Shown piece after piece: positions 385 to 9,537 of a stretch of 64,000 nt of DNA. The notes below the pieces were generated by a model. The model worked only from the letters and a program-made list of their open reading frames with translations. It was not told the origin of the DNA and did no database searches. The translations under genes were made by a program, and so were the position numbers. The DNA comes from Patescibacteria group bacterium (GTDB lineage: Bacteria > Patescibacteriota > Patescibacteriia > UBA10025 > JAHIVO01), in assembly GCA_041650915.1 (NCBI GenBank), contig JBAZKE010000001.1, positions 251,284 through 315,283 of the forward strand. Direction: 5' to 3'. Position 1 is the first letter of the stretch. Each line of letters starts with the position of its first letter.

Positions 385-3300
385 ATGAAGAAAGTATTCT
401 ATACTTTTTTTTGTGCACTGGCGGTTTTCGGGGCCGCTAATTTATACGTACCGGCTGCGCACGCCACCTACGGCGACGTAGCGACCTATGCGGGCAGCGT
501 GTACGGCGGCGACGGCGGAGACAAGCTCGATGCGTATTTTGATTTTCCGGAGGACCTGGCGCTCGACACTTCGGGCAACTATTACATTGCCGATACGTAC
601 AACAACGTAATCAGGAAGATTTCTTCGGGCGGGACCGTGAGTACGCTGGCAGGGGGCGGTTCGTACGGCTCTGCGGATGGCGCTTCCACAGCTGCGCAGT
701 TCGCGCTGCCGCGGGGCGTGGCGGCGGGCTCGGATGGCGCGGTGTACGTTGCCGATACCGGCAACAGCAGGATCAGGAAAGTCGCTGCTGACGGAACCGT
801 ATCAACACTCGTGAGCTCGGGGGTTTCTTCTCCATACGGCGTTCGGCCGTACGGCACGCGGCTGTACATCGCCGACTCCGGCAACGGTGCGATCAAGTAC
901 GTGAGCACATCCGGCGGAACGGTCACGACGCTGACGTCATCGCTTTCGGATCCGCGCCGCATGGATATTTCCGATGACGGGCAGACGCTCTACGTCGCCG
1001 ATAATGGCAACCACCGCGTCGTGTCAGTTAATACGACGACGGGTGTCGTTAACGTCATCGCCGGCTCGGGCAACTCAGGGTACGTTGAGGGTATCGGCAC
1101 GCTCGCCCAGTTTGAGAACGTGTGGGGCATTGCGCTCGACGGCGGCTACCTGTACGTATCAGACCACGACGGCTGGACGGTCGACCGGATCAGGAAGATT
1201 AATCTCGCGACGCGGTCGACTTCGCTCGTGTACCAGGATACGCGCCAGAATGAAATGATTTACCCCTCGGGCGTACTCGTAAACGGCGATTACGTTTATA
1301 CCGTGAATGCCGGCCTCGGCACAGTACACCGTTTCAACAAGAATAACGGATCCGACAACAGCTTATTCGCGGGATCGGACCGGTTTGGCAACGAGAACGG
1401 GGATATTGATGGCGCACTCTTCGGGCGGCCGAACGATATGGCCATGACAGCAGACGGGAAGTACCTGTACGTTGCCGACAACAATAAGATACGGAAGATC
1501 GATACCAGTGCGGGAACGGTCAGCCACGTGATCGGTTCGAGCGTTGACAACTACCGGGGAGAGGGGACTGATTACGATGAGCTGCCGGTCCGTTTTTCTA
1601 CGATCCAGGGCATAACGGTCAATGCAGCCGGTACGAGGCTGTACATTGCCGACCGGTGGAATAATAGGATACGGGGCGTTAACCTGACCGCTGATCCGAT
1701 TAGCACGTTTCTCGTATCAGGCGCCGGGCTCATCAATACGCGCGGTGACGATAATAACGGGTACCTGGAGGGGACGCGGTGCTCGGAAGACATTCAGACC
1801 ACGGGCGCATCGGGCTGCTCCTACTTCAGGGCGCCGACTGGAATCGTGATTGATCCGACGAATACGTACCTATACGTTTCAGATACCGGAAACAACAGGA
1901 TCCGGAAAGTGCGCATATCCGACGGCCAGACGTGGCTCGTTGCGGGATCCGGCGAGGCGGGGTACCTGAACGGCATCGGGTCGTCAGCCCGTTTTAACCG
2001 GCCGTTCGGGCTCACGATCGACGCGACCGGGAGCAACCTGTACGTCGCGGATACCAACAACCACGTCATCAGGAAGATTGAGCTCTCGTCAGGTACGGTG
2101 AGTACAGTGGTCGGCAATGGCTCTGCGGGATACCGCGAAGCGATCGGCACCGACGCGGTGCTGTCGTACCCCGAGTACGTCAAGATGTCAGCTGACAATC
2201 AGCTGTATTTTTCCGATACCGGCTCGCAGCGCGTCCGCGTGGTCGATCCGTCAACGCGGCTGACAAAGCTCGTCGCAGGCTCCGGCACGCGCGGGTATAA
2301 GAATGGGGCAAAGGAGTCAGCCCAGTTCAATAATATTAAGGGGCTGCAACCGAGCGCGGACAGCACTCTTCTCTACGTTGCCGACATGTGGAACGACGCC
2401 ATACGGCGCGTCGACGTCGAGGGTGAGGCACCGTATTCTGAGCCGGCACCGACGCTCTCCGCCATTTCCCCGAGCGAGGTCAACCCGGCATGGGATAAAG
2501 GTGCAGGCTTGCACGTGAAGGTTGAGGGCGGAAACTTCCAGCACGGGCTCATCACGCTGTTTGGGAATGCGGAGGCAGAGATCACGTACGTCCAGTCAGC
2601 AACTTCTCTGTCCGTCCGGCTGCCGCTCACCAAGATGAATCCCGGCTGGTACGACGTGACAGTGCGATCGCTCGACGGCCAGGAGGCAACGCTTGAACGG
2701 TCGCTGGGGATCACCAACAGCGCCGGCGTTACACCGGACGTGTACTACGAATACTCCGGCAAGACTGCCGGAACGATTTCTTCGCCAGGATCGTACAGTC
2801 CGCCGATCGCGGAGGGAACATCATTTTTTGCGTACTCTTCATCGCTCCGCGGCGGATACCACACCGGAGCCGGCAACCTGTTGGGGAGCAATGATGAGGA
2901 AATTATCGTCGGTTCGGGCGACGGCATGGCGCCGCACGTTCGGGTGTTTGATAGTACGGGCACCCTGAAAGCCCAGTTTTTCGCGTACGATTCATCGCTC
3001 CGCAATGGCGTTATCGTATCGGCTTGCGATGTGAATGGAGACGGCATGGAAGAGGTCGTTACCGCGCAGGGACCGGGGGGGTGGCCGCTCGTCCGCATTT
3101 TCGACGGGTACGGTACCGTGGTCAACGACGGTTTCTATGTGCTCGACGGCAAGTACACCGGGGGGGTGAACCTTTCGTGCGGTGATACGAATGGCGACGG
3201 CATATCGGAGATCGTCGTCGCGGCGCAGGCGGGCGGCGGTCCGCACGTGCTCGTGTATAACGTCGACGGGAAAATTTTAACCAATTTTATGGCGTACGAT

Positions 3301-3744
3301 CCAAAATTCCGCGGCGGAATCAACGTGACAACCGCTGACGCAGACGGCGACGGCAAAGATGAGATCATTACGGGCCCACAGATCGGGGCGTCGCACGTCC
3401 AGTTTTTCCAGATACGCCCGAATGAGCTTAAGCGCCTGTCACCGGGCTTCTACGCATTCAATCTCGACTACCGCGGCGGCGTATCTGTCGCTGGCGTGGA
3501 TACGGACGGCGACGGCACTAAAGAGGTGCTCGTCGGCGTCGGCGAAGAGGCGTCGCCGCTCGTCCGGGTTTTCAATATCCACGAGGAGCTGCAGAAGGAG
3601 TTTTACGTGTACACGACAACGTACCTCGGCGGCGTTAACATTGCAGGCGGTGACGTCGATGGTGACGGCGCAGACGAGCTCATGACGGTACCGAGGTCGG
3701 GTGGCGGGCCCAACGTCCGCGTCATTAACGTCGATGAGGTGTAG
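385..3744 (+). CDS. secreted NHL-repeat beta-propeller / FG-GAP (integrin-alpha-like, Ca-binding) repeat protein with an IPT/TIG-like middle segment
   Basis: N-terminal signal peptide MKKVFYTFFCALAVFGAANLYVPAAHA. More than 10 NHL-type repeats (YIADTYNNVIRKI, VYVADTGNSRIRKV, LYIADSGNGAIKYV, LYVADNGNHRVVSV, LYVSDTGNNRIRKV...). The C-terminal third has six FG-GAP-like repeats with DxNGDGxxEvv calcium-binding loops (DVNGDGMEEVV, DTNGDGISEIVV, DADGDGKDEIIT, DTDGDGTKEVLV, DVDGDGADELMT). No membrane anchor. Confidence 0.7.
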   Translation: MKKVFYTFFCALAVFGAANLYVPAAHATYGDVATYAGSVYGGDGGDKLDAYFDFPEDLALDTSGNYYIADTYNNVIRKISSGGTVSTLAGGGSYGSADGASTAAQFALPRGVAAGSDGAVYVADTGNSRIRKVAADGTVSTLVSSGVSSPYGVRPYGTRLYIADSGNGAIKYVSTSGGTVTTLTSSLSDPRRMDISDDGQTLYVADNGNHRVVSVNTTTGVVNVIAGSGNSGYVEGIGTLAQFENVWGIALDGGYLYVSDHDGWTVDRIRKINLATRSTSLVYQDTRQNEMIYPSGVLVNGDYVYTVNAGLGTVHRFNKNNGSDNSLFAGSDRFGNENGDIDGALFGRPNDMAMTADGKYLYVADNNKIRKIDTSAGTVSHVIGSSVDNYRGEGTDYDELPVRFSTIQGITVNAAGTRLYIADRWNNRIRGVNLTADPISTFLVSGAGLINTRGDDNNGYLEGTRCSEDIQTTGASGCSYFRAPTGIVIDPTNTYLYVSDTGNNRIRKVRISDGQTWLVAGSGEAGYLNGIGSSARFNRPFGLTIDATGSNLYVADTNNHVIRKIELSSGTVSTVVGNGSAGYREAIGTDAVLSYPEYVKMSADNQLYFSDTGSQRVRVVDPSTRLTKLVAGSGTRGYKNGAKESAQFNNIKGLQPSADSTLLYVADMWNDAIRRVDVEGEAPYSEPAPTLSAISPSEVNPAWDKGAGLHVKVEGGNFQHGLITLFGNAEAEITYVQSATSLSVRLPLTKMNPGWYDVTVRSLDGQEATLERSLGITNSAGVTPDVYYEYSGKTAGTISSPGSYSPPIAEGTSFFAYSSSLRGGYHTGAGNLLGSNDEEIIVGSGDGMAPHVRVFDSTGTLKAQFFAYDSSLRNGVIVSACDVNGDGMEEVVTAQGPGGWPLVRIFDGYGTVVNDGFYVLDGKYTGGVNLSCGDTNGDGISEIVVAAQAGGGPHVLVYNVDGKILTNFMAYDPKFRGGINVTTADADGDGKDEIITGPQIGASHVQFFQIRPNELKRLSPGFYAFNLDYRGGVSVAGVDTDGDGTKEVLVGVGEEASPLVRVFNIHEELQKEFYVYTTTYLGGVNIAGGDVDGDGADELMTVPRSGGGPNVRVINVDEV

Positions 3745-3816: not shown

Positions 3817-6087
3817 ATGCATCACAGTGAGAGTAAGGGAGCGTCGATAATTCCGGCCGTTTCGATCATTCTGGTCGCACTCCTTATCGGCGGCGGCCTT
3901 TTCTGGTACTCCCTTAATAAGGAAATCGTTTTTCCAGAGACCAACTTGGCTATGACCGGCGGCGCGCCGATCGCTGGAACCCTCGCGTACCAGCAGGGCG
4001 ATGTTTTTGTTTTATTCGCCTCGGGAAGCGAGTGGGAGCAGGCTGAGACGGATACAGTCCTCCATGCTGGGGACAGCGTACGGACAGGCGATGCGTCGAC
4101 AAATCCAAAAGCAATTATCGATCTGGAGATGGGCGATACGATCCGGCTCGGATATGGCACCGAGCTGTCGTTCTCTGCGCTCAAGCAGGATAAGGTCACG
4201 GTCTCTCAGGTCACGGGAGCAATTTACAGCCGCGTCGCGAAGCGGAGCAGGGGCCTGTACGAAGTGCAGGTCGGCGATGTGAGGATACGGGCGCTCGGAA
4301 CCGCGTTCGACGTCGTCATCGACGGCAAGGAGGTTGGCGTCAACGTCGTTGAGAGCACGGTTGCCGTGGTTACCGATGCGGGGCAGCAGAGGGTAGAAGA
4401 GGGAAGCTCAGCTACCATTGATAGTGACACGAAGGATCTTAGCGTAACATTGATGGATCAGTCAGCATTGGATAATGAATGGTATACCTGGAATAAAGAG
4501 GAGGATTCAAAGACAAACCGCGATCTTGGCATCCTTGAGCAGTTTGCCGGGCCGGATGTCGACGTTACGAGCCCTGCAGACGGCAGCACGGTAAAAACTG
4601 CAACGGTCACGGTAAGCGGGACGGTGAGTGATTTTGAAGCAACGGTCACAGTTGGCGGAGCGGCAGTCGTGAACAGCGCCGGGCAGTTTACCCATGAGGT
4701 AGAGCTTGTTTCCGGAAAGAACGTCATTTCCGTTACAGCCCAGAATGCCGAGGGGTACCGGACAGTAAAAGAAATCAAGGTGACGTACGCCGAAGACATT
4801 CCGGCAACTGCGACGCCCATCGAGGTATCCGCAGAGACAGGAGCGGACGGCGTTTCCCTTTCCTGGAACCAGTCATCGGGCACTGTGTTCCAGTATTATA
4901 AAGTAGTCAGGTCAGAGAGCAATCCGGAGCCAACCTATCCCGACGACGGCTACATTGCGGTATTGAACAAAGGAGACGAGCGCTATACTGATACTGAGGT
5001 TTCAGCGGATAAGACGTACTACTACCGCATTTGTGAAGTCATGGCCGAGGGTGAGGTTTTTTGTTCGAACGTGGTGCATATGAAAGGCAAACAGCAGCAG
5101 GAACAAAATGAGAACCAGAATCAGGGTGAAACCCAGAATCAGGAGCAGGAGCACAATCAGGAGCAGGCGACGGAGGCAGGGCTGTCGCTCTCGGCCACCG
5201 CAGAGTCGGATGGGGTGCACCTTAGCTGGACGACCGGCGGTCTCGACGTTTCAGGAGGATTCAAGCTCGTGAGGGGCACTGCGGCTAATCCGGTGTATCC
5301 GGGAAATGACTATCAGTATCTCTCGGACAGTTCAGCGCGAAGTTATACCTGGGCGCTTACCGACGGAAAGACGTATCACTTCCGCGTATGCCAGTACAAT
5401 GGTGAGGGGACGTGCCTTTCTTACAGCAACAATGTCGAGCTGACTGCGTATGAGCAGCCGACACCCGAGATAAGCCTCATCATGTCAGCGACGCCGGAAG
5501 ATACCGGTGTCGGGCTCTGGTGGTCGGATGTTTCTGCCATGTCGGGGTTTAAGTACTATAAGGTTGTCAGGTCAGAGACAAACGCTGACTTGCGGTACCC
5601 GGACGACAGCTACATCGCGGTCAAGTCAGCGGGGGAGGAGAGCCACCGCGACTACAGCGCGGTCAAAGGGACGCCGTACTTTTACCGCATTTGTGCGGTC
5701 GGTGATGCGATTGTGTGCAGCAACGTACTCCAGATAACCCCGATCCATACGAATGCTGCGCCGACAGCCGGTACGCTCTCGGGGTCGTTCAGCGGCGGAC
5801 AGCTCACGCTCTCCTGGACCGCATCAGGCGAAGCTGACTTTAAGTACTATAAGGTCGTATGGTCCCAGGCCGATTCGACGCCCGTCTATCCGACCGATGG
5901 GTATATCGGAGTGATTTCAGATGCGAATACGGTAACGTTTACCGATGATGGCGAACCCGCTGGATCGAGAAAAGACAGCGTGTGCCTGAACTGCACGACA
6001 AACTACTACGCCGTGTGCGTCGTCGATTCCCAGAGCCAGGTTGCTTGCAGCAATGCGGTCACGCTTTCTGGCGGGGCGGTCCAGTAA
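3817..6087 (+). CDS. membrane-anchored FecR-domain protein with a Q/N/E low-complexity linker and three or four ~100-aa FN3-like repeats
   Basis: One N-terminal TM helix (IIPAVSIILVALLIGGGLFWY). FecR-like segment (VLHAGDSVRTGDAS...IDLEMGDTIRLGYGTELSF). Linker KGKQQQEQNENQNQGETQNQEQEHNQEQ. Tandem internal repeats, each with the signature (F)QYYKVVRSE...YYYRICEV / FKYYKVVRSE...YFYRICAV / FKYYKVVWSQ...NYYAVCVV. Confidence 0.6.
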   Translation: MHHSESKGASIIPAVSIILVALLIGGGLFWYSLNKEIVFPETNLAMTGGAPIAGTLAYQQGDVFVLFASGSEWEQAETDTVLHAGDSVRTGDASTNPKAIIDLEMGDTIRLGYGTELSFSALKQDKVTVSQVTGAIYSRVAKRSRGLYEVQVGDVRIRALGTAFDVVIDGKEVGVNVVESTVAVVTDAGQQRVEEGSSATIDSDTKDLSVTLMDQSALDNEWYTWNKEEDSKTNRDLGILEQFAGPDVDVTSPADGSTVKTATVTVSGTVSDFEATVTVGGAAVVNSAGQFTHEVELVSGKNVISVTAQNAEGYRTVKEIKVTYAEDIPATATPIEVSAETGADGVSLSWNQSSGTVFQYYKVVRSESNPEPTYPDDGYIAVLNKGDERYTDTEVSADKTYYYRICEVMAEGEVFCSNVVHMKGKQQQEQNENQNQGETQNQEQEHNQEQATEAGLSLSATAESDGVHLSWTTGGLDVSGGFKLVRGTAANPVYPGNDYQYLSDSSARSYTWALTDGKTYHFRVCQYNGEGTCLSYSNNVELTAYEQPTPEISLIMSATPEDTGVGLWWSDVSAMSGFKYYKVVRSETNADLRYPDDSYIAVKSAGEESHRDYSAVKGTPYFYRICAVGDAIVCSNVLQITPIHTNAAPTAGTLSGSFSGGQLTLSWTASGEADFKYYKVVWSQADSTPVYPTDGYIGVISDANTVTFTDDGEPAGSRKDSVCLNCTTNYYAVCVVDSQSQVACSNAVTLSGGAVQ

Positions 6088-6157: not shown

Positions 6158-7300
6158 CTATCCCTCATACGCATAGCGATTGACCGGGATCAAACCTCGG
6201 TACGCCAATATTGCCTGGCGTGCGAGAGATTGCATCTCGAGATCCTCGGCATTCACGCGATTGATGGGGATCACGTCCTCAAGGTACACGTAAACGCCTT
6301 CCGTCAGCTCGGCAGCTGCCGTCATCTTGCCGGACCAGTAGAGCACGTCTGCATGGAAACCGATGTCGACGAGCCGCTTGCCGACCTCCTCGGCAATCCG
6401 CAGGTACCATCGGTCGAGCACTTCCAGCACTTCTTCATTGCCCTGGCGGGCGAGTTTGATGATGTCCTTGAAATCGGTAACGCCGAGGTGGCCAAGGTGG
6501 CTCATGAGGCCGGAGCGCTTGAGCAAGAGTTTCGCAATTTCACCGAAGTCCTTGCCGTCATTCCTCGCGAGGTCGTGGATATACCGGGCGAAGTCGAGCG
6601 ACGGCACGTCACAGCAGCGCGTGATTCCCGGAGGGCCGATCTGATTGGGATTGCTCACCGCGATGATTTTGCCCTTGCGAACAGCTGCGATGCTGAATCC
6701 GCCGCCTCCGGCATAGATGAAGATGCCGTTCGCTTCGCAGGCGTTGATTCTGTTTTCTTGTGCCCAGGAAGCGATCATTTCCCGCAGCGCAAGGTAGTGG
6801 CCGTGTGATTCGATCGGCAGCCCTTTGATTCCGCTCATCTTGCACGCCTGGTTGTAGGCAGGGTCTTCGCCCGAAACGGGATCTGCGAAGAAGACGTTGT
6901 CCTGGATGCCGAGCTCCTGTGCGACTGCAAAGCCGTCGGTCGGCGCGTTGTTGCATACGTGAATCGTGCCGAAGTGGCCACGGGCGCATGCTCTCAGCAC
7001 CGGCTCATCGACCCGCGTAACACCGGGAAGCGCGTTGACTAGGATAGCGCCCCGTGTCGCGATCCCGCACACGGCCAGTGTGCCGGATGGGTCTGGCAGT
7101 TTTTCGGCAATGAATTTAATGTAGCGAAGCAGCGATGACTGGCGGTCGCCTGCCGCCGCATTGTCCGGAAATTCCAGTACGCGTTTGTCGATAAATTCAC
7201 CATTGATTGGAAATTGATCGATATCCGCGGTAAAAACTTCCGCACTGGTGGAGCCGGGGTTATAGCCGATGATAACCCTGCACGTTTTACTTTCTGACAT
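6158..7300 (-). CDS. buk: butyrate kinase-family (ASKHA superfamily) acyl-kinase
   Basis: N-terminus RVIIGYNPGSTSAEVFTAD matches the butyrate kinase ILVINPGSTSTKIxxxD motif. Internal IFIYAGGGGFSIAAVRKGKIIAVSN matches LIVVHMGGGTSVGTHKDGRVIEV. About 380 aa, typical length. Strong SD (aagGGAGGAcatacgATG) and a TTGACG-17-TACAGT promoter upstream on the minus strand. Confidence 0.65.
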   Translation of the reverse strand: MSESKTCRVIIGYNPGSTSAEVFTADIDQFPINGEFIDKRVLEFPDNAAAGDRQSSLLRYIKFIAEKLPDPSGTLAVCGIATRGAILVNALPGVTRVDEPVLRACARGHFGTIHVCNNAPTDGFAVAQELGIQDNVFFADPVSGEDPAYNQACKMSGIKGLPIESHGHYLALREMIASWAQENRINACEANGIFIYAGGGGFSIAAVRKGKIIAVSNPNQIGPPGITRCCDVPSLDFARYIHDLARNDGKDFGEIAKLLLKRSGLMSHLGHLGVTDFKDIIKLARQGNEEVLEVLDRWYLRIAEEVGKRLVDIGFHADVLYWSGKMTAAAELTEGVYVYLEDVIPINRVNAEDLEMQSLARQAILAYRGLIPVNRYAYEG

Positions 7301-7520
7301 CGTATGTCCTCCCTTGGACTATGGGTTGTGGGATAGTAGGTTCTTTTTTTGTATCCGATTACTGTATCAGAGGTTGAGCCGTTCGTCAATCAAAAAACCT
7401 CTCCGCACAGAGCCGCTGGGTAAGCGGTGTGGTTACAAAAAAATTCCTGCAGGTTTAAAGGGATTTGGCGCCGACGCGCTTCTTGTGCTGCATTCGCGCG
7501 CGTAATTAACGGCGTTGCGT

Positions 7521-7660
7521 ACGCCAAAACAGAGCGGACCCAAGGGGATTTGGTTCCGGGGTGCTCGGGCGGTTCCCGCATCCTCGCACCCGTGCTCGCG
7601 GTCGCGACTCAAGCAGGTGAGTCGCTTATTCCGCTCGCACCCCCTGATCTCTTCAGTTAG
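7521..7660 (-). repeat. degenerate partial copy (variable loop + T-arm + acceptor 3' strand) of the adjacent tRNA-Asp, split by a ~80-nt GC-rich hairpin insertion
   Basis: Minus-strand reading: AGATCAGGGGG-[~80 nt insert]-CCCCGGAACCAAATCCCCTTGGGTCCGC, versus the intact tRNA AGATCAGGGGTCCAAATCCCCTTGGGTCCG. Confidence 0.45.
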
Positions 7661-7694
7661 ATTTTAGAGGTTAAGAGAATACTTCAAAACTAAG

Positions 7695-7769
7695 CGGACC
7701 CAAGGGGATTTGGACCCCTGATCTCCTCCGTGACAGGGAGGCGTGTTAACCGGGCTACACCATGGGTCC
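7695..7769 (-). tRNA. tRNA-Asp (anticodon GTC), 75 nt, CCA not encoded
   Basis: Minus-strand cloverleaf read by hand. Acceptor GGACCCA/TGGGTCC, U8, D-stem GTGT/ACAC with D-loop AGCCCGGTTA (A14, G18G19, A21), G26, anticodon stem CCTCC/GGAGG with loop CTGTCAC (U33, GUC, A37, C38), variable AGATC, T-stem AGGGG/CCCCT with loop TCCAAAT (C at position 55 is atypical), discriminator G73 as expected for Asp. Confidence 0.7.
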
Positions 7770-7799
7770 GCTTAGTTTTGAAAGTCAGATTCGTTCTAT

Positions 7800-7895
7800 C
7801 GTGTTATTGAGGAGGCATGCCTGCCCCGCCGTATGGCGGGATTAACCGGGCTAGTTCTCCCGTCGAATGACGGGACACCATGGGTCCGTTCTGCT
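7800..7895 (-). repeat. degenerate partial copy (acceptor 5' strand + D-arm) of the adjacent tRNA-Asp, with a 21-nt hairpin insertion in the D-arm and a diverged downstream part
   Basis: Minus-strand reading: GGACCCATGGTGT-[CCCGTCATTCGACGGGAGAAC]-TAGCCCGGTTAA followed by diverged sequence with the hairpin CCCGCC-ATAC-GGCGGG. Compare the intact GGACCCATGGTGTAGCCCGGTTAACAC. Confidence 0.4.
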
Positions 7896-7907
7896 GGTGA
7901 AGATTCG

Positions 7908-8252
7908 CTATTTAACTGCTTTTTTCACGATCGCTTCGAATGCTTTCGGCTCGTGCTCCGCGAGCTCCGCGAGCATTTTTCTGTTGAGCTCAATCTTCGC
8001 GTTTTTTAGCGCCCTCATGAATGTGCCGTACGTCATGCCGCGCTCGCGAGCTGCAGCGTTGATCTTGATATTCCAGAGGTTTCTCGTTGTCCGTTTTTTC
8101 TTCCGGCGGTCGTTGTACGCGTGCACGCCTGCCTTTATTGCTGCAACCTTGGCGAGTTTTGGCTTACTCTTCCGCCCCCAGCGGTAACCTTTTGTCTTTT
8201 TGAGGAGGTTCTTCCGCCTTTTCAAATGTGATATTCCGCGTTTTACTCTCAT
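7908..8252 (-). CDS. rplT: 50S ribosomal protein L20
   Basis: MRVKRGISHLKRRKNLLKKTKGYRWGRK...NDRRKKKRTTRNLWNIKINAAARERGMTY is the canonical L20 sequence. Gene order infC-rpmI-rplT. Confidence 0.9.
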   Translation of the reverse strand: MRVKRGISHLKRRKNLLKKTKGYRWGRKSKPKLAKVAAIKAGVHAYNDRRKKKRTTRNLWNIKINAAARERGMTYGTFMRALKNAKIELNRKMLAELAEHEPKAFEAIVKKAVK

Positions 8253-8551: not shown

Positions 8552-9040
8552 TTACTTTTTTCCGACGAGCAGCGAGAGCCGCCCTCCCTGCCGGCTGACC
8601 GGCTGTTCGATGGCTACGCTTGCCGACTCCGAGAGCGAACCAACAAACTGCGTCATCATCTCCTGTGCGCGGTTTGCGTGCGCGCGTTCTCTGCCGCGGA
8701 GGATGAGCTCAACCTTGACCTTGTTGCCCTTCTCAAGGAATTTAAGCGCCTGATTTTTCCTTAGTTCGAGATCGTGCGGGCCGATCTTCAGCGAGATCCG
8801 CACGCCTTTGATCTCAACTTTCTTTTGCTTCGCTTTCTGCTTGCGTTCTTTCTTCTCCTGCTGGTATTGGTATGCTCCAAAGTCCATGATTCTGCATACA
8901 GGAGGTTCCGCGAGCGGGGATACCTCAATGAGGTCGAGCTCACGTTCGTGCGCGAGCTGGAGCGCGCGGCGTGTGTCCATGGCGCCGAGCTGCGCGCCCT
9001 CGTCGTCGATCACCATTACCTGCGGAGCCTTGATCATCAT
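8552..9040 (-). CDS. infC: translation initiation factor IF-3
   Basis: ...IKAPQVMVIDDEGAQLGAMDTRRALQLAHERELDLIEVSPLAEPPVCRIMDFGAYQYQQ...GRERAHANRAQEM matches IF-3 N- and C-domains. The ORF-track start (9151) overlaps the tmRNA 3' end and is almost certainly too long. The real start may be a non-AUG codon; an ATT lies at ~9101-9103. The first in-frame ATG is listed here. Confidence 0.8.
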   Translation of the reverse strand: MMIKAPQVMVIDDEGAQLGAMDTRRALQLAHERELDLIEVSPLAEPPVCRIMDFGAYQYQQEKKERKQKAKQKKVEIKGVRISLKIGPHDLELRKNQALKFLEKGNKVKVELILRGRERAHANRAQEMMTQFVGSLSESASVAIEQPVSRQGGRLSLLVGKK

Positions 9041-9127
9041 GTTGGCGCGGAGCCGCTTCTTGATAACGAGCTTCGGGGGTCGTCGTCTTCGTCTGCTGCT
9101 AATGGTCGTGGTGGTTAATGATTTTTT

Positions 9128-9537
9128 TGGTGGAAGCGAGGGGCATCGCACCCCTGTCCATGTAACCGGTTACAAAAACCTCTACAAGCGTAGTCTGTTT
9201 AATGGTGTCGGATCGAGGGGTAAGAACAGACAAAGCCCCCGCAACCCCGAGCCTTCAATTGGAGTTTAAGCGCCTGCGAAAAGGCTAACGCAGATGCCGA
9301 TTCCGGTAATGGCGCCCTGGTTCTCTACCGGACGTCGAGAGCAGGACGGCAGTTGGTTTTTAGGCAACTACTGGCGCAAAGGAAGGCACGGCAAATGCTT
9401 GCGCAAATGCGGTCTTCACCTTGCTAACAAATGATTTGGCATTTGTAATTTTCTACCGTTAGTTTAACGTCGTAGAGGTAAACTTGGACGGCTTGCTGTT
9501 TTTATAAACGTGCTACTGTCGATTTCTAAACGCTCCC
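9128..9537 (-). ncRNA. ssrA: tmRNA (ssrA), ~410 nt, CCA encoded
   Basis: Minus-strand 5' end GGGAGCGUUUAGAAAUCGACAGUAG resembles the B. subtilis tmRNA 5' end GGGGACGUUACGGAUUCGACAGGG. The 3' end GGACAGGGGUGCGAUGCCCCUCGCUUCCACCA has a T-arm plus acceptor. The acceptor pairs 5' GGGAGCG with 3' CGCUUCC and includes the G3:U70 Ala-identity wobble. Located directly downstream of smpB on the same strand. Internal candidate tag frame ...GCA UUU GCG CAA GCA UUU GCC GUG CCU UCC UUU GCG CCA GUA GUU GCC UAA. Confidence 0.65.

Follow-up and report, generated by a model that had tools for sequence, protein, structure and literature searches.

Organization of the tRNA-Asp region downstream of rplT

In the window, i.e., the whole stretch of 64,000 nucleotides analyzed here, the infC-rpmI-rplT operon is followed on the same strand by an intact tRNA-Asp gene, which is enclosed by the two halves of a second, interrupted copy. 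The loci compared with it, from Patescibacteria genomes and metagenomes, are labeled L plus a number. The features of the region, read along the minus strand, are the following:

7908 to 8252, minus strand: rplT (ribosomal protein L20), final gene of infC-rpmI-rplT (NCBIfam TIGR01032, E value 1.7e-34).
7888 to 7896, minus strand: decayed leader of the outer copy (CAGCAGAAC), partially pairing with the outer trailer (inverted repeat I3).
7875 to 7887, minus strand: outer 5' relic, part 1, with the acceptor 5' strand and the D-stem 5' strand (tRNA positions 1 to 13; 13/13 identity).
7854 to 7874, minus strand: insert A, a 21-nt hairpin, CCCGTCATTCGACGGG plus AGAAC (from folding).
7842 to 7853, minus strand: outer 5' relic, part 2, the D loop TAGCCCGGTTAA (12/12 identity to the intact gene).
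7820 to 7841, minus strand: insert B, a 22-nt hairpin, reverse-oriented member of the CCTG-CCCCG...CGGGG palindromic family (from folding).
7811 to 7819, minus strand: outer 5' relic, part 3, CATG CCTCC (8/9 identity to CACGCCTCC of the intact gene).
7770 to 7782, minus strand: leader of the intact gene, extending the acceptor stem and complementary to the trailer (inverted repeat I1).
7695 to 7769, minus strand: intact tRNA-Asp(GUC) (ARAGORN and Rfam RF00005).
7683 to 7694, minus strand: trailer of the intact gene, forming a stem with its leader (inverted repeat I1).
7641 to 7657, minus strand: outer 3' relic, part 1 (ACTGAAGAGATCAGGGG; repeat D3, 15/17).
7554 to 7640, minus strand: 87-nt insert with two hairpin domains at the T-loop 5' end, between G53 and C55 (from folding).
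7534 to 7553, minus strand: outer 3' relic, part 2, with the remainder of the T loop, the T-stem 3' strand, the acceptor 3' strand, and the discriminator (20/20).
7520 to 7533, minus strand: trailer of the outer copy (TCTGTTTTGGCGTA), within the 34-nt repeat D1.
7457 to 7480, minus strand: possible second, older relic, an insert end plus CCAAATCCCTTT (repeat D2, 75% over 24 nt).

The intact gene, which the initial annotation had placed at 7695 to 7769 on the minus strand as tRNA-Asp(GTC), is called by ARAGORN as tRNA-Asp(gtc) at 7694 to 7769 (minus strand) and by the Rfam tRNA model RF00005 at 7695 to 7769 with 63.2 bits, the gathering score being 29. It presents the 7-bp acceptor stem and the D, anticodon, and T arms of a canonical bacterial tRNA, its encoded sequence ends without CCA, and it is uninterrupted, every insert being located in the relic copies. 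The T loop, TCCAAAT (UCCAAAU in the RNA), confirms the C at position 55 that had already been remarked upon and that departs from the canonical U54-U55-C56 arrangement; C55 is rare, as it occurs in 2 of about 150 tRNA-Asp genes sampled in a T-loop survey.

The outer 5' relic begins 20 nt after the rplT stop codon. Its first part, GGACCCATGGTGT at 7887 to 7875, repeats the intact tRNA exactly and on the same strand (13/13 nt), and its third part corresponds to the D-stem 3' strand, position 26, and the anticodon-stem 5' strand, where the similarity stops; with the inserts removed, tRNA positions 1 to 31 are matched with one mismatch. The initial annotation had described here a copy of the acceptor 5' strand and D arm broken by a 21-nt hairpin, which the exact repeats and the stable fold of insert A (-10.6 kcal/mol, z -3.9) bear out. 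The stretch beyond that hairpin, which had been regarded as degenerate, is actually a second hairpin of 22 nt (insert B, 7841 to 7820), which folds at -13.1 kcal/mol (z -2.5) when the 26-nt stretch from 7841 to 7816 is considered.

The outer 3' relic is broken in an analogous way. Its first part consists of a degenerate anticodon-stem 3' strand, the variable loop, and the T-stem 5' strand and includes the exact same-strand repeat GAGATCAGGGG at 7651 to 7641 (11/11 nt), and its second part is the exact same-strand repeat CCAAATCCCCTTGGGTCCGC at 7553 to 7534 (20/20 nt), beyond which the similarity continues for 14 nt into the trailer, giving the 34-nt family D1 (88% identity). Without its insert, this copy matches tRNA positions from about 41 to 76, plus the trailer. 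The hairpin of about 80 nt previously reported within the downstream copy of the variable loop, T arm, and acceptor 3' strand was found as an 87-nt insert of two hairpins, with a fold of -48.3 kcal/mol (z -5.3; 7641 to 7554 folded), no Rfam match, and no other copy in the window. Thus, the outer copy carries three small palindromic inserts, two flanking the D loop and one at the T-loop 5' end, all three of which form stable hairpins (21, 22, and 87 nt), and the exact repeats (13/13, 12/12, 11/11, and 20/20) agree with the earlier description of flanking 5' and 3' halves in the correct order. Further downstream, the repeat at 7457 to 7480 and the 9-mer CCAAATCCC at +301 hint at a possible second, older relic.

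Searches for other elements in the region were negative. No promoter-like site was found between rplT and the tRNA region by promoter scanning, and no real Rho-independent terminator was found in the region. The locus of the window carries no endonuclease, integrase, or transposase gene, and tblastn detected no GIY-YIG open reading frame (ORF) in the window; the DNA between the tRNA 3' repeats consists only of spacer and hairpin insert, about 160 nt in all, with neither an ORF nor an integrase. Within the 64-kb window, none of the inserts, including insert A, has a second copy. No target-site duplication flanks the inner cassette of the window, and a direct repeat sought there, comparable to that of L015 (40 nt), was not significant, with a score of 18 versus a shuffle mean of 16.2 (p about 0.26). 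A search of a phage collection with the region matched only the tRNA itself, and Rfam searches returned only tRNA, tmRNA, and chance matches, both for the region (E values up to 10) and for five related loci (E values up to 1). A group I intron in the tRNA was also considered and rejected, as no match to the core models was obtained at E values up to 10 in 7300 to 8000 and the inserts measure 21, 22, and 87 nt, compared to the 200 nt or more that such an intron would occupy. ARAGORN also called a "tRNA-Val with intron" on an artificial construct when its threshold was relaxed, a result that we regard as spurious.

Starting at rplT and as far as the intact gene's anticodon loop, the independent Logan assembly L201 (run SRR8542065) is identical to the window, which makes an assembly artifact unlikely; the end of the Logan contig falls inside the repeat.

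Leader and trailer helices

The acceptor stem of the intact gene and its complementary leader and trailer form a 23-bp stem (inverted repeat I1, 23 nt, 96% complementary), and folding of the resulting unit of 100 nt gives -51.8 kcal/mol (z -6.4). A separate leader/trailer pair (inverted repeat I3, 16 nt, 88% complementary) belongs to the outer copy; the duplex of this pair has decayed to -8.2 kcal/mol, compared to -18.5 kcal/mol for the intact orthologous pair in L099; the outer leader of L099 paired with the outer trailer of the window gives -16.6 kcal/mol. The outer trailer of the window is orthologous to those of other loci, in that the outer copies of L001 and L099 end in the same trailer, GCTCTGTTTTG, and outer helices comparable to that of L099 were observed in L029 (-18.7 kcal/mol) and L144 (-23.5 kcal/mol). 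The entire 386-nt stretch folds at -172.8 kcal/mol (z -7.0) into a domain closed by the outer acceptor halves.

Long leader/trailer stems of 13 to 17 bp were found in 11/36 relic-bearing loci and in none of 108 relic-free loci (Mann-Whitney p = 1e-5), the longest stems in the latter being 12 and 9 bp.

Recurrence of tRNA relics in Patescibacteria

Relics are present in about a fifth to a third of the sampled tRNA-Asp loci of Patescibacteria genomes and metagenomes. Partial self-copies were detected near 15/35 tRNA-Asp genes close to rplT in the genomes (exact matches of at least 9 nt within 700 nt) and near 32/118 tRNA-Asp loci sharing a 20-nt D-arm word (at least 10 nt within 700 nt; 114 loci from the metagenome scan, the window, and three genome loci). 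The host tRNA sequences of the relic-bearing loci are quite different from each other. Among loci with no called tRNA-Asp after rplT, no hidden, interrupted sole copy was found.

Two loci display the nesting cleanly. The outer tRNA-Asp of L105 is complete and is parted at G34/U35, where a long hairpin bearing the intact gene at its tip intervenes; a tRNA-Met is likewise nested in L135, its outer copy differing in the acceptor stem, which is self-complementary. The inserts recur after tRNA positions 12/13, 21, 34, and 53. Close relatives differ in relic number and kind: L202 (83% L20 identity) has two 5' relics with an acceptor sequence unlike that of its own intact gene, which indicates a fast turnover of the architecture, and L001 (75% rplT identity) has the 3' relic with no T-loop insert.

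In L127, L145, L179, and L028, a unit composed of the T-stem 5' strand, an insert, the T-loop 3' half, the acceptor 3' strand, and CCA lies 3' of the terminator of the intact tRNA and is followed by a terminator-like hairpin with a T run. The closing helix of this unit is lengthened through compensatory changes.

Insert families and GIY-YIG genes in related loci

Across loci, the insert families occupy the same tRNA positions, as well as other positions, in either orientation. Reverse-oriented members of the CCTG-CCCCG...CGGGG family follow the D loop in the 5' relics of L001 and L141, and L010 and L034 have them at D-loop positions; forward-oriented members lie within the 3' relics of L029, L099, L202, and L204. 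The core of insert A is found in L039 (4769 to 4792) as a perfect 24-nt palindrome at a different site, in place of the T arm of the 3' relic, and several inserts, such as those of L039 and L116, are perfect loopless palindromes. The GAGCGNAGYGAG core was observed 6 times near tRNA-Asp versus 1.1 expected (p = 4e-4) and is also found near tmRNA and tRNA-Met genes. The left flank of the inserts is always NNTG.

Domain 1 of the T-loop insert, located at the same site in the window and in L029, is 96% identical between the two, with the rplT DNA at 66%. Furthermore, a hairpin with the loop A(A/C)CUG(C/U)UU retains 8 bp across four stem sequences (window/L029, L105, L145, and L039); as L039 was out of register in the M1 hairpin alignment, the covariation was taken directly from the sequences. 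The nhmmer and pattern searches for the inserts of the window retrieved only the window and L029, and the junction at which the T-loop insert (3' end) meets the T arm (CCCCGGAANNNAATCCCCTTGGG) was without a match when metagenomes were scanned.

GIY-YIG genes were identified in some related loci. In L015 and L044, such a gene (Pfam PF01541, E value about 1e-15) separates the intact tRNA from a 5' pseudo-copy that ends in GGGTTCG, and in L139 this place is taken by a GIY-YIG relative (tblastn, 39% identical, E value 2.5e-8); in all three, the position is homologous to the upstream spacer of the window. The cassette of L015 also carries an ORF of 257 amino acids with no Pfam or PHROG family, and a direct repeat of about 40 nt flanks its 1.25-kb insert.

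Origin of the nested arrangement

The anatomy described above recurs in many genomes, with shared insert families and, in relatives, endonuclease genes. With moderate confidence, we interpret the tRNA region, on the basis of sequence comparison, as a nested wreck of mobile DNA that would repeatedly break tRNA-Asp and leave or bring a working copy. We favor this reading because the nesting recurs, including the clean cases of L105 and L135; because long leader/trailer stems go with relics and the outer copies have helices of their own; because the insert families occur at several sites and in both orientations; because the T-loop insert is patchy yet highly conserved, while the architecture turns over fast; and because GIY-YIG genes lie inside the cassettes of relatives. 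The nesting would have been made by insertion and not by local duplication, and the outer copy of the window would be without function.

The putative sequence of events is as follows. Elements would insert repeatedly at the loops of tRNA-Asp genes in Patescibacteria, preferring the T loop (53 to 58), the anticodon loop (33 to 35), and the borders of the D loop. Some insertions would be cassettes in which a long hairpin presents a complete tRNA-Asp at its tip, and in relatives some of them would also bring the gene of a GIY-YIG homing endonuclease together with further cargo. Through the cassette copy, the host would retain a working gene, and the resident copy would be left as 5' and 3' relics; later, the endonuclease gene would be lost, and the relics would decay and gather further small palindromes.

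Some observations stand against this reading. Genes for an endonuclease, integrase, or transposase are absent from the locus in the window, none of the inserts has a second copy within the 64 kb, and the inner cassette is flanked by neither a target-site duplication nor a significant direct repeat. The outer tRNA-like blocks show about 4 mismatches in about 69 positions to the inner gene, though the flanks have diverged, and in L099 and L029 the outer and inner copies share lineage-specific acceptor changes; such near-identity requires a recent origin, gene conversion, or selection. Moreover, the compensatory changes that keep the hairpins, together with a domain 1 more conserved than the tRNA, would fit a functional RNA as well.

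A further hypothesis, put forward tentatively, is that the locus records a new mobile unit, i.e., a complete tRNA gene at the tip of a long palindromic hairpin that would insert in the loops of the same tRNA, sometimes with a GIY-YIG gene, and leave empty hairpins and a conserved, structured T-loop element of 90 to 170 nt. Alternatively, and also tentatively, the T-loop unit would itself be a novel structured RNA whose 3' end is tRNA-like.

We consider it rather unlikely that the outer pieces and inserts together make a functional composite RNA, either a scaffold derived from tRNA-Asp or an RNA whose 3' end is tRNA-like, cotranscribed with rplT and the real tRNA and serving to process or to insulate the folding of RNA, or as a decoy or mimic; the product would be an RNA of about 120 nt with the 3' end ...UGGGUCCG(CCA) or a 370-nt unit. 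The fold of the 386-nt stretch, closed by the outer acceptor halves, would suit such an RNA, as would the fully compensated stem changes in the T-loop insert hairpins, the higher conservation of domain 1 than of rplT, and the outer blocks that follow the sequence of the inner gene. The unit placed after the terminator in L127, L145, L179, and L028, with its compensated closing helix and its own terminator-like hairpin, points in the same direction. However, the small hairpins are found in either direction with respect to the tRNA, which would give them different RNA sequences, and the perfect loopless palindromes of L039 and L116 are a signature at the DNA level. The variation of the relics between close relatives, the decay of the outer leader and outer anticodon stem in the window, and the lack of an Rfam family also argue against a functional RNA.

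The initial annotation had listed four possible origins without choosing among them, and two of these, att-like scars and small hairpin (MITE-like) elements, are those that best fit the comparative evidence. As for the first, it is unlikely that the relics are att-type scars in the strict sense, left by tyrosine- or serine-integrase elements that integrated at the loops, restored the gene with a copy of their own, and have since been nearly completely deleted. The junctions do lie at the two classical sublocations, the anticodon loop and the T loop, and a 3' direct repeat (20/20 nt plus the trailer) is present downstream of the intact gene; L127, L028, and L145 have two terminators each, one belonging to the intact tRNA and one to the displaced 3' piece, as would be expected of attL and attR, and the direct repeat around the 1.25-kb insert of L015 (40 nt) could be read in the same way. 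On the other hand, no integrase gene was noticed between the repeats of those loci that were inspected, 5' pieces are as common as 3' pieces, the repeats are only 40 to 250 nt apart in many independent lineages, and a mosaic gene made by two integrations would lack the complementary leader/trailer of 13 to 17 bp. With regard to the MITE-like elements, the inserts are hairpin palindromes with a conserved core, found across genomes at different sites and in both orientations, but their flanks rejoin to uninterrupted tRNA sequence with no target-site duplication.

The other two origins fare worse. A local tandem triplication of tRNA-Asp, eroded through deletions and small insertions without the action of a mobile element, would account for pieces in the correct order, on one strand, and with high identity to the intact gene, but it is quite improbable: the copies would share one spacer sequence, whereas here the spacers are mutually complementary (I1), and the outer copy has a different leader/trailer pair, with a trailer orthologous in other genomes, so that the decayed tandem duplication proposed earlier leaves both pairs unexplained, as well as the same inserts and positions in distant genomes and the endonuclease genes. 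Clean tandem tRNA-Asp arrays, the expected intermediate stages, are absent from about 150 loci. Finally, it is highly improbable that the outer copy is a genuine multi-intron or split tRNA gene, as had also been suggested, spliced or assembled into a second tRNA-Asp: the outer pieces of L105, if joined, would give a full tRNA with the same sequence as the inner one, and the insert positions 12/13, 21/22, 34/35, and 53/54 presumably resemble those of the noncanonical introns of archaeal tRNAs, but the outer copy of the window has no anticodon loop and keeps only 3/5 anticodon-stem pairs, ARAGORN in intron mode finds only the inner gene, no bulge-helix-bulge could be drawn by inspection at the insert B junction (4-bp central helix), no group I intron or ribozyme matched at E values up to 10 in 7300 to 8000, and the host, which has tmRNA, SmpB, and the infC-rpmI-rplT operon, is a bacterium.

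Comparison with known systems

In the literature, we found no description of a tRNA gene nested within its own relics. To our knowledge, disrupted tRNA genes have so far been seen as an archaeal and algal speciality, and for bacterial tRNA genes the interruptions known to us are of two kinds, group I introns and the att sites of integrases. The tRNA gene studied here, which is single-copy and essential, belongs to a lineage with reduced genomes and is a recurrent target of small insertions. Such loci break assemblies, and tRNA finders capture only part of them.

The disrupted tRNA genes of Archaea and red algae, which may be multi-intron, split, or permuted (PMC4390854, PMC4033280), resemble the outer copy in their interruptions in the D arm, anticodon loop, and T arm and in their leader/trailer helices. 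The present locus differs from them in belonging to a bacterium, in having no bulge-helix-bulge at the insert B junction, and in an outer copy that, in the window, yields no tRNA and contains a complete gene nested inside, a feature absent from the archaeal and algal genes (PMC4390854, PMC4033280).

Duplications of att sites at tRNA genes likewise produce partial direct repeats that flank an intact gene, with junctions in the anticodon or T loop; different from them, the relics described here include 5' pieces, are separated by 40 to 250 nt of intervening DNA with no integrase or island, and, in the window, enclose an intact gene that sits in its own complementary leader/trailer stem. REP/BIME and MITE-like elements share with the inserts the short GC-rich hairpins, the conserved core, and the occurrence in either orientation at varied sites and genomes, but the inserts strongly prefer tRNA-derived loops, are not present in multiple copies in the 64-kb window, and lack a target-site duplication or known transposase.

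SegB of phage T4 is a free-standing GIY-YIG homing endonuclease in a tRNA gene cluster (PMC2330249), and the small GIY-YIG genes beside the tRNA genes of L015, L044, and L139 recall this arrangement. The window, however, has no endonuclease gene, the host is a CPR bacterium and not a phage, and nested partial copies of the target are not described for SegB (PMC2330249); the endonuclease activity is here a prediction.

The inserts also resemble the insertion sequences of CPR rRNA genes, which are short, ORF-less, and mostly under 200 bp (Tsurumaki et al. 2024, PMC11270868). The lineage, as judged for the window from its L20 relatives, is shared, as are recurrent sites at the tips or bases of stem-loops, patchiness, and the occasional GIY-YIG or LAGLIDADG genes, and the inserts studied here are also short and ORF-less and recur at defined sites of a structural RNA gene. 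That study does not mention tRNA genes (0 occurrences of "tRNA"), and its insertions differ from the present inserts, which are confined to disabled tRNA copies rather than lying within a functional one and have an uninterrupted copy nested between them. If the cassette model is true, selfish DNA can hit an essential RNA gene without killing its host by bringing the replacement, and the colonization by CPR insertion sequences would extend from rRNA to tRNA genes.

Nested copies of tRNA-Asp in the window

On the minus strand, the gene order of the window is smpB, tmRNA (9537-9128), infC, rpmI, rplT (8252-7908), the disrupted tRNA-Asp region, and a butyrate/acetate-kinase-like gene (7300-6158). 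L20 relatives place the host within the Patescibacteria (CPR), the closest L20 sharing 70% identity in the best species-representative genome and 83% in one 9-kb metagenome contig. An independent Logan contig is identical to the window at every base from rplT through the inner anticodon loop.

The initial annotation had described an intact tRNA-Asp with C at T-loop position 55, flanked by two half-copies in the right order, each bearing an insertion. The intact (inner) gene was called by both ARAGORN and Rfam, with the T loop UCCAAAU, that is, C55. A repeat finder and a k-mer scan recovered four exact tRNA-Asp blocks of the broken outer copy around it, on the same strand and in the correct order:

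7769-7695, minus, inner gene, canonical tRNA-Asp(GUC), called by both programs
7887-7875, minus, outer block 1, tRNA positions 1-13
7853-7842, minus, outer block 2, D loop
7651-7641, minus, outer block 3, variable loop and T-stem 5' strand
7553-7534, minus, outer block 4, T loop to discriminator, the match running 14 nt on into the trailer

Three inserts, all folding into stable hairpins, interrupt these blocks: insert A (21 nt, 7874-7854), insert B (22 nt, 7841-7820), and the T-loop insert (87 nt, 7640-7554). The first and the last correspond to the 21-nt and ~80-nt hairpins already noted, whereas the supposedly degenerate stretch in fact holds the second D-arm hairpin, insert B. Without the inserts, the upstream copy (5' relic) spans positions 1-31 with a single mismatch and the downstream copy (3' relic) runs from about position 41 to 76, the anticodon loop being absent from both.

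The inner leader is complementary to the trailer, lengthening the acceptor stem to 23 bp (-51.8 kcal/mol, z -6.4), and the outer 5' flank pairs imperfectly with the 3' flank (-8.2 kcal/mol). The outer leader of the window is decayed; the window shares its outer trailer, GCTCTGTTTTG, with the comparison loci L001 and L099, and this trailer pairs with the intact outer leader of L099 at -16.6 kcal/mol. The entire 386-nt stretch folds into a domain closed by the outer acceptor halves (z -7.0, a large share of which is expected from the duplicated tRNA parts alone). Downstream of the outer copy, at 7457-7480 (minus), a GC-rich stretch is followed by CCAAATCCCTTT, a weak resemblance to a T arm that may mark an older relic.

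Elsewhere in the window, the tmRNA gene (9128-9537, minus), directly between smpB (10068-9619) and infC, encodes an unusually long tag of 26 residues, AKSFVSKVKTAFAQAFAVPSFAPVVA, and similarly long tags occur in relatives. With its GTG start, the mechanically predicted infC ORF (8552-9151) shares 24 nt with the tmRNA 3' end; infC therefore probably begins further downstream. Large plus-strand ORFs at 385-3744 and 3817-6087 (1119 and 756 aa), with weak NHL/beta-propeller and adhesin-like matches, probably encode surface proteins.

Recurrence across Patescibacteria

In many Patescibacteria, tRNA-Asp follows rplT, and partial self-copies lie near 15 of 35 tRNA-Asp genes at rplT loci (exact matches of at least 9 nt, within 700 nt). 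Such copies (matches of at least 10 nt) are present at 32 of 118 tRNA-Asp loci with a common 20-nt D-arm word, a set made up of the window, three genome loci, and 114 loci from the metagenome scan. Leader/trailer stems of 13 to 17 bp occur at 11/36 loci with relics and 0/108 without (p = 1e-5), the longest stems among relic-free loci being 12 and 9 bp; the outer copies of L099 and L144 have perfect 12-nt leader/trailer helices.

The architecture varies. The 5' relic of L001 carries two inserts at the window's two positions, and its 3' relic lacks the T-loop insert. Two 5' relics are present in L029 and also in L202; in L039 all relics are 3' ones, two in number. The L105 locus has a complete outer tRNA-Asp with the same sequence as the inner one; a long hairpin that carries the inner gene at its tip splits it precisely at G34/U35. 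Nesting is not confined to tRNA-Asp, since in L135 (4040-4290, minus) a tRNA-Met lies within another tRNA-Met-like gene, at the anticodon loop; the outer gene has C55 in its T loop and an acceptor stem that differs from the inner one at nearly all positions and is still self-complementary. Recurrent insert sites follow position 12/13, the D loop, and G34; further ones are 53/54-58 and 65/66. Stand-alone tRNA-Asp-like copies with a perfect hairpin instead of the anticodon arm and no adjoining intact tRNA (L167, ~2270-2350, oriented; L149, ~1215-1300; L116, upstream copy) may represent vacant landing sites or else tRNA-like RNAs that lack an anticodon.

Insert families and endonuclease genes

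Insert B belongs, in reverse orientation, to the hairpin family CCTG-CCCCG...(GAGCGAAGCGAG-like core)...CGGGG, members of which lie forward in 3' relics, in the anticodon loop or at the T-stem/acceptor junction, and reversed at the D loop of 5' relics, always with NNTG on the 5' side and without target duplication. Its core motif is enriched near tRNA-Asp (6 observed, 1.1 expected), with further occurrences in terminator-like hairpins and beside tmRNA and tRNA-Met genes. L039 has the core of insert A again, there forming a perfect 24-nt palindrome in place of a T arm. Many of these genomes also have palindromic repeats of the form GTCATTCCGAACGAAGTGAGGAATC, akin to the GAGCGAAGCGAG core, within terminator-like hairpins and intergenic DNA (L015, ~4505-4530; flanks of L116 and L105; L128, ~330-370).

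The T-loop insert family extends to L029, L039, L105, and L145, with looser relatives in L127, L179, L190, L028, and L010; in one of its hairpins, the loop A(A/C)CUG(C/U)UU and a pairing of 8 bp persist across four different stem sequences. Between the window and L029, identity is 96% for domain 1 of the insert, 66% for rplT DNA, and 93% for the tRNA; the insert is absent from L001, whose rplT is 75% identical to that of the window. Since the insert is patchy yet more conserved than host genes, sequence comparison points to horizontal spread or strong selection.

A GIY-YIG ORF lies between the 5' pseudo-copy and the intact tRNA-Asp in L015 and L044 (86-87 aa; Pfam E ~1e-15) and in L139 (tblastn, E 2.5e-8). 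The adjoining pseudo-copies always stop at GGGTTCG, T-loop position 57, and their anticodon arm is replaced by a short perfect hairpin. The L015 cassette, enclosed by a ~40-nt direct repeat of pseudo-tRNA, contains the GIY-YIG gene, tRNA-Asp, a terminator, and a 257-aa ORF (5055-5828, with the intact tRNA-Asp on one side and the 3' pseudo-copy on the other) without known domain or Pfam or PHROG family. Small GIY-YIG genes adjoin tRNA-Asp and tRNA-Met genes in seven metagenome loci, and several relatives have one between the tmRNA gene and infC; the window has none, there or elsewhere. The tmRNA-infC genes are as follows:

L204/L205, 949-1215
L029, 2871-3098
L009, 2866-3069
L054, 2479-2706
L043, 1346-1531
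L077, 1733-1951

In L029, L009, and L077, the tmRNA gene may be interrupted, as ARAGORN calls none where it would be expected.

T-loop position 55

In these uncultivated lineages, C55 or G55 replaces U55 in several tRNA genes that are otherwise normal:

window, 7695-7769, tRNA-Asp
L052, 4561-4637
L173, L195, and L199, tRNA-Met
L078, tRNA-Gly
metagenome loci, 11 tRNA-Met and one tRNA-Thr genes with T loops starting UGC (mostly UGCAAUU)

Only 2 of ~150 tRNA-Asp genes have C55. Position 55 adjoins the T-loop junction used by GIY-YIG cassettes. The inner C55 of the window matches the base following the insert in its own outer copy and in that of L039, where the inner gene has U55. By inference, this agreement hints at exchange (gene conversion) between copies.

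Origin of the nested arrangement

The whole pattern is most simply explained if mobile DNA has inserted repeatedly into loops of the tRNA-Asp gene. Part of the insertions would bring a complete replacement gene within a hairpin, with later loss of the endonuclease gene and erosion. Such a history would explain the nesting, the two independent leader/trailer pairs, the quick turnover of architecture among relatives, the common inserts in either orientation, and the endonuclease genes. As it stands, it does not yet account for the near-identity of relic tRNA-like blocks to the working gene, including shared lineage-specific acceptor changes (L099, L029), for which gene conversion between copies is a possible answer. 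A functional tRNA-like scaffold RNA is a live rival, favored by the high conservation of the T-loop insert unit and by its position, in some genomes, after the tRNA terminator and before a terminator-like hairpin. The genuinely split or intron-containing tRNA considered in the initial annotation is rejected: ARAGORN run in intron mode reports nothing in the region but the inner gene, Rfam matches no intron, ribozyme, or other family in the flanks at E up to 10, a bulge-helix-bulge cannot form at the insert B junction (the one junction inspected), and the outer anticodon stem keeps 3/5 pairs.

Comparison with known systems

A full-text literature search found no description of the nested tRNA-Asp arrangement. 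Integrase att duplications occur at tRNA genes and are among the nearest known systems. The others are phage tRNA clusters with free-standing GIY-YIG endonucleases (PMC2330249), CPR rRNA genes with insertion sequences, in a study that does not treat tRNA genes (PMC11270868), and the disrupted tRNA genes of archaea (PMC4390854). In none of the four is a complete tRNA gene enclosed by its own disrupted copy and accompanied by a common palindromic insert family. Mobile-DNA scars at tRNA genes are themselves an already known kind of locus, and part of the interest of the present case lies in the pattern being lineage-wide.
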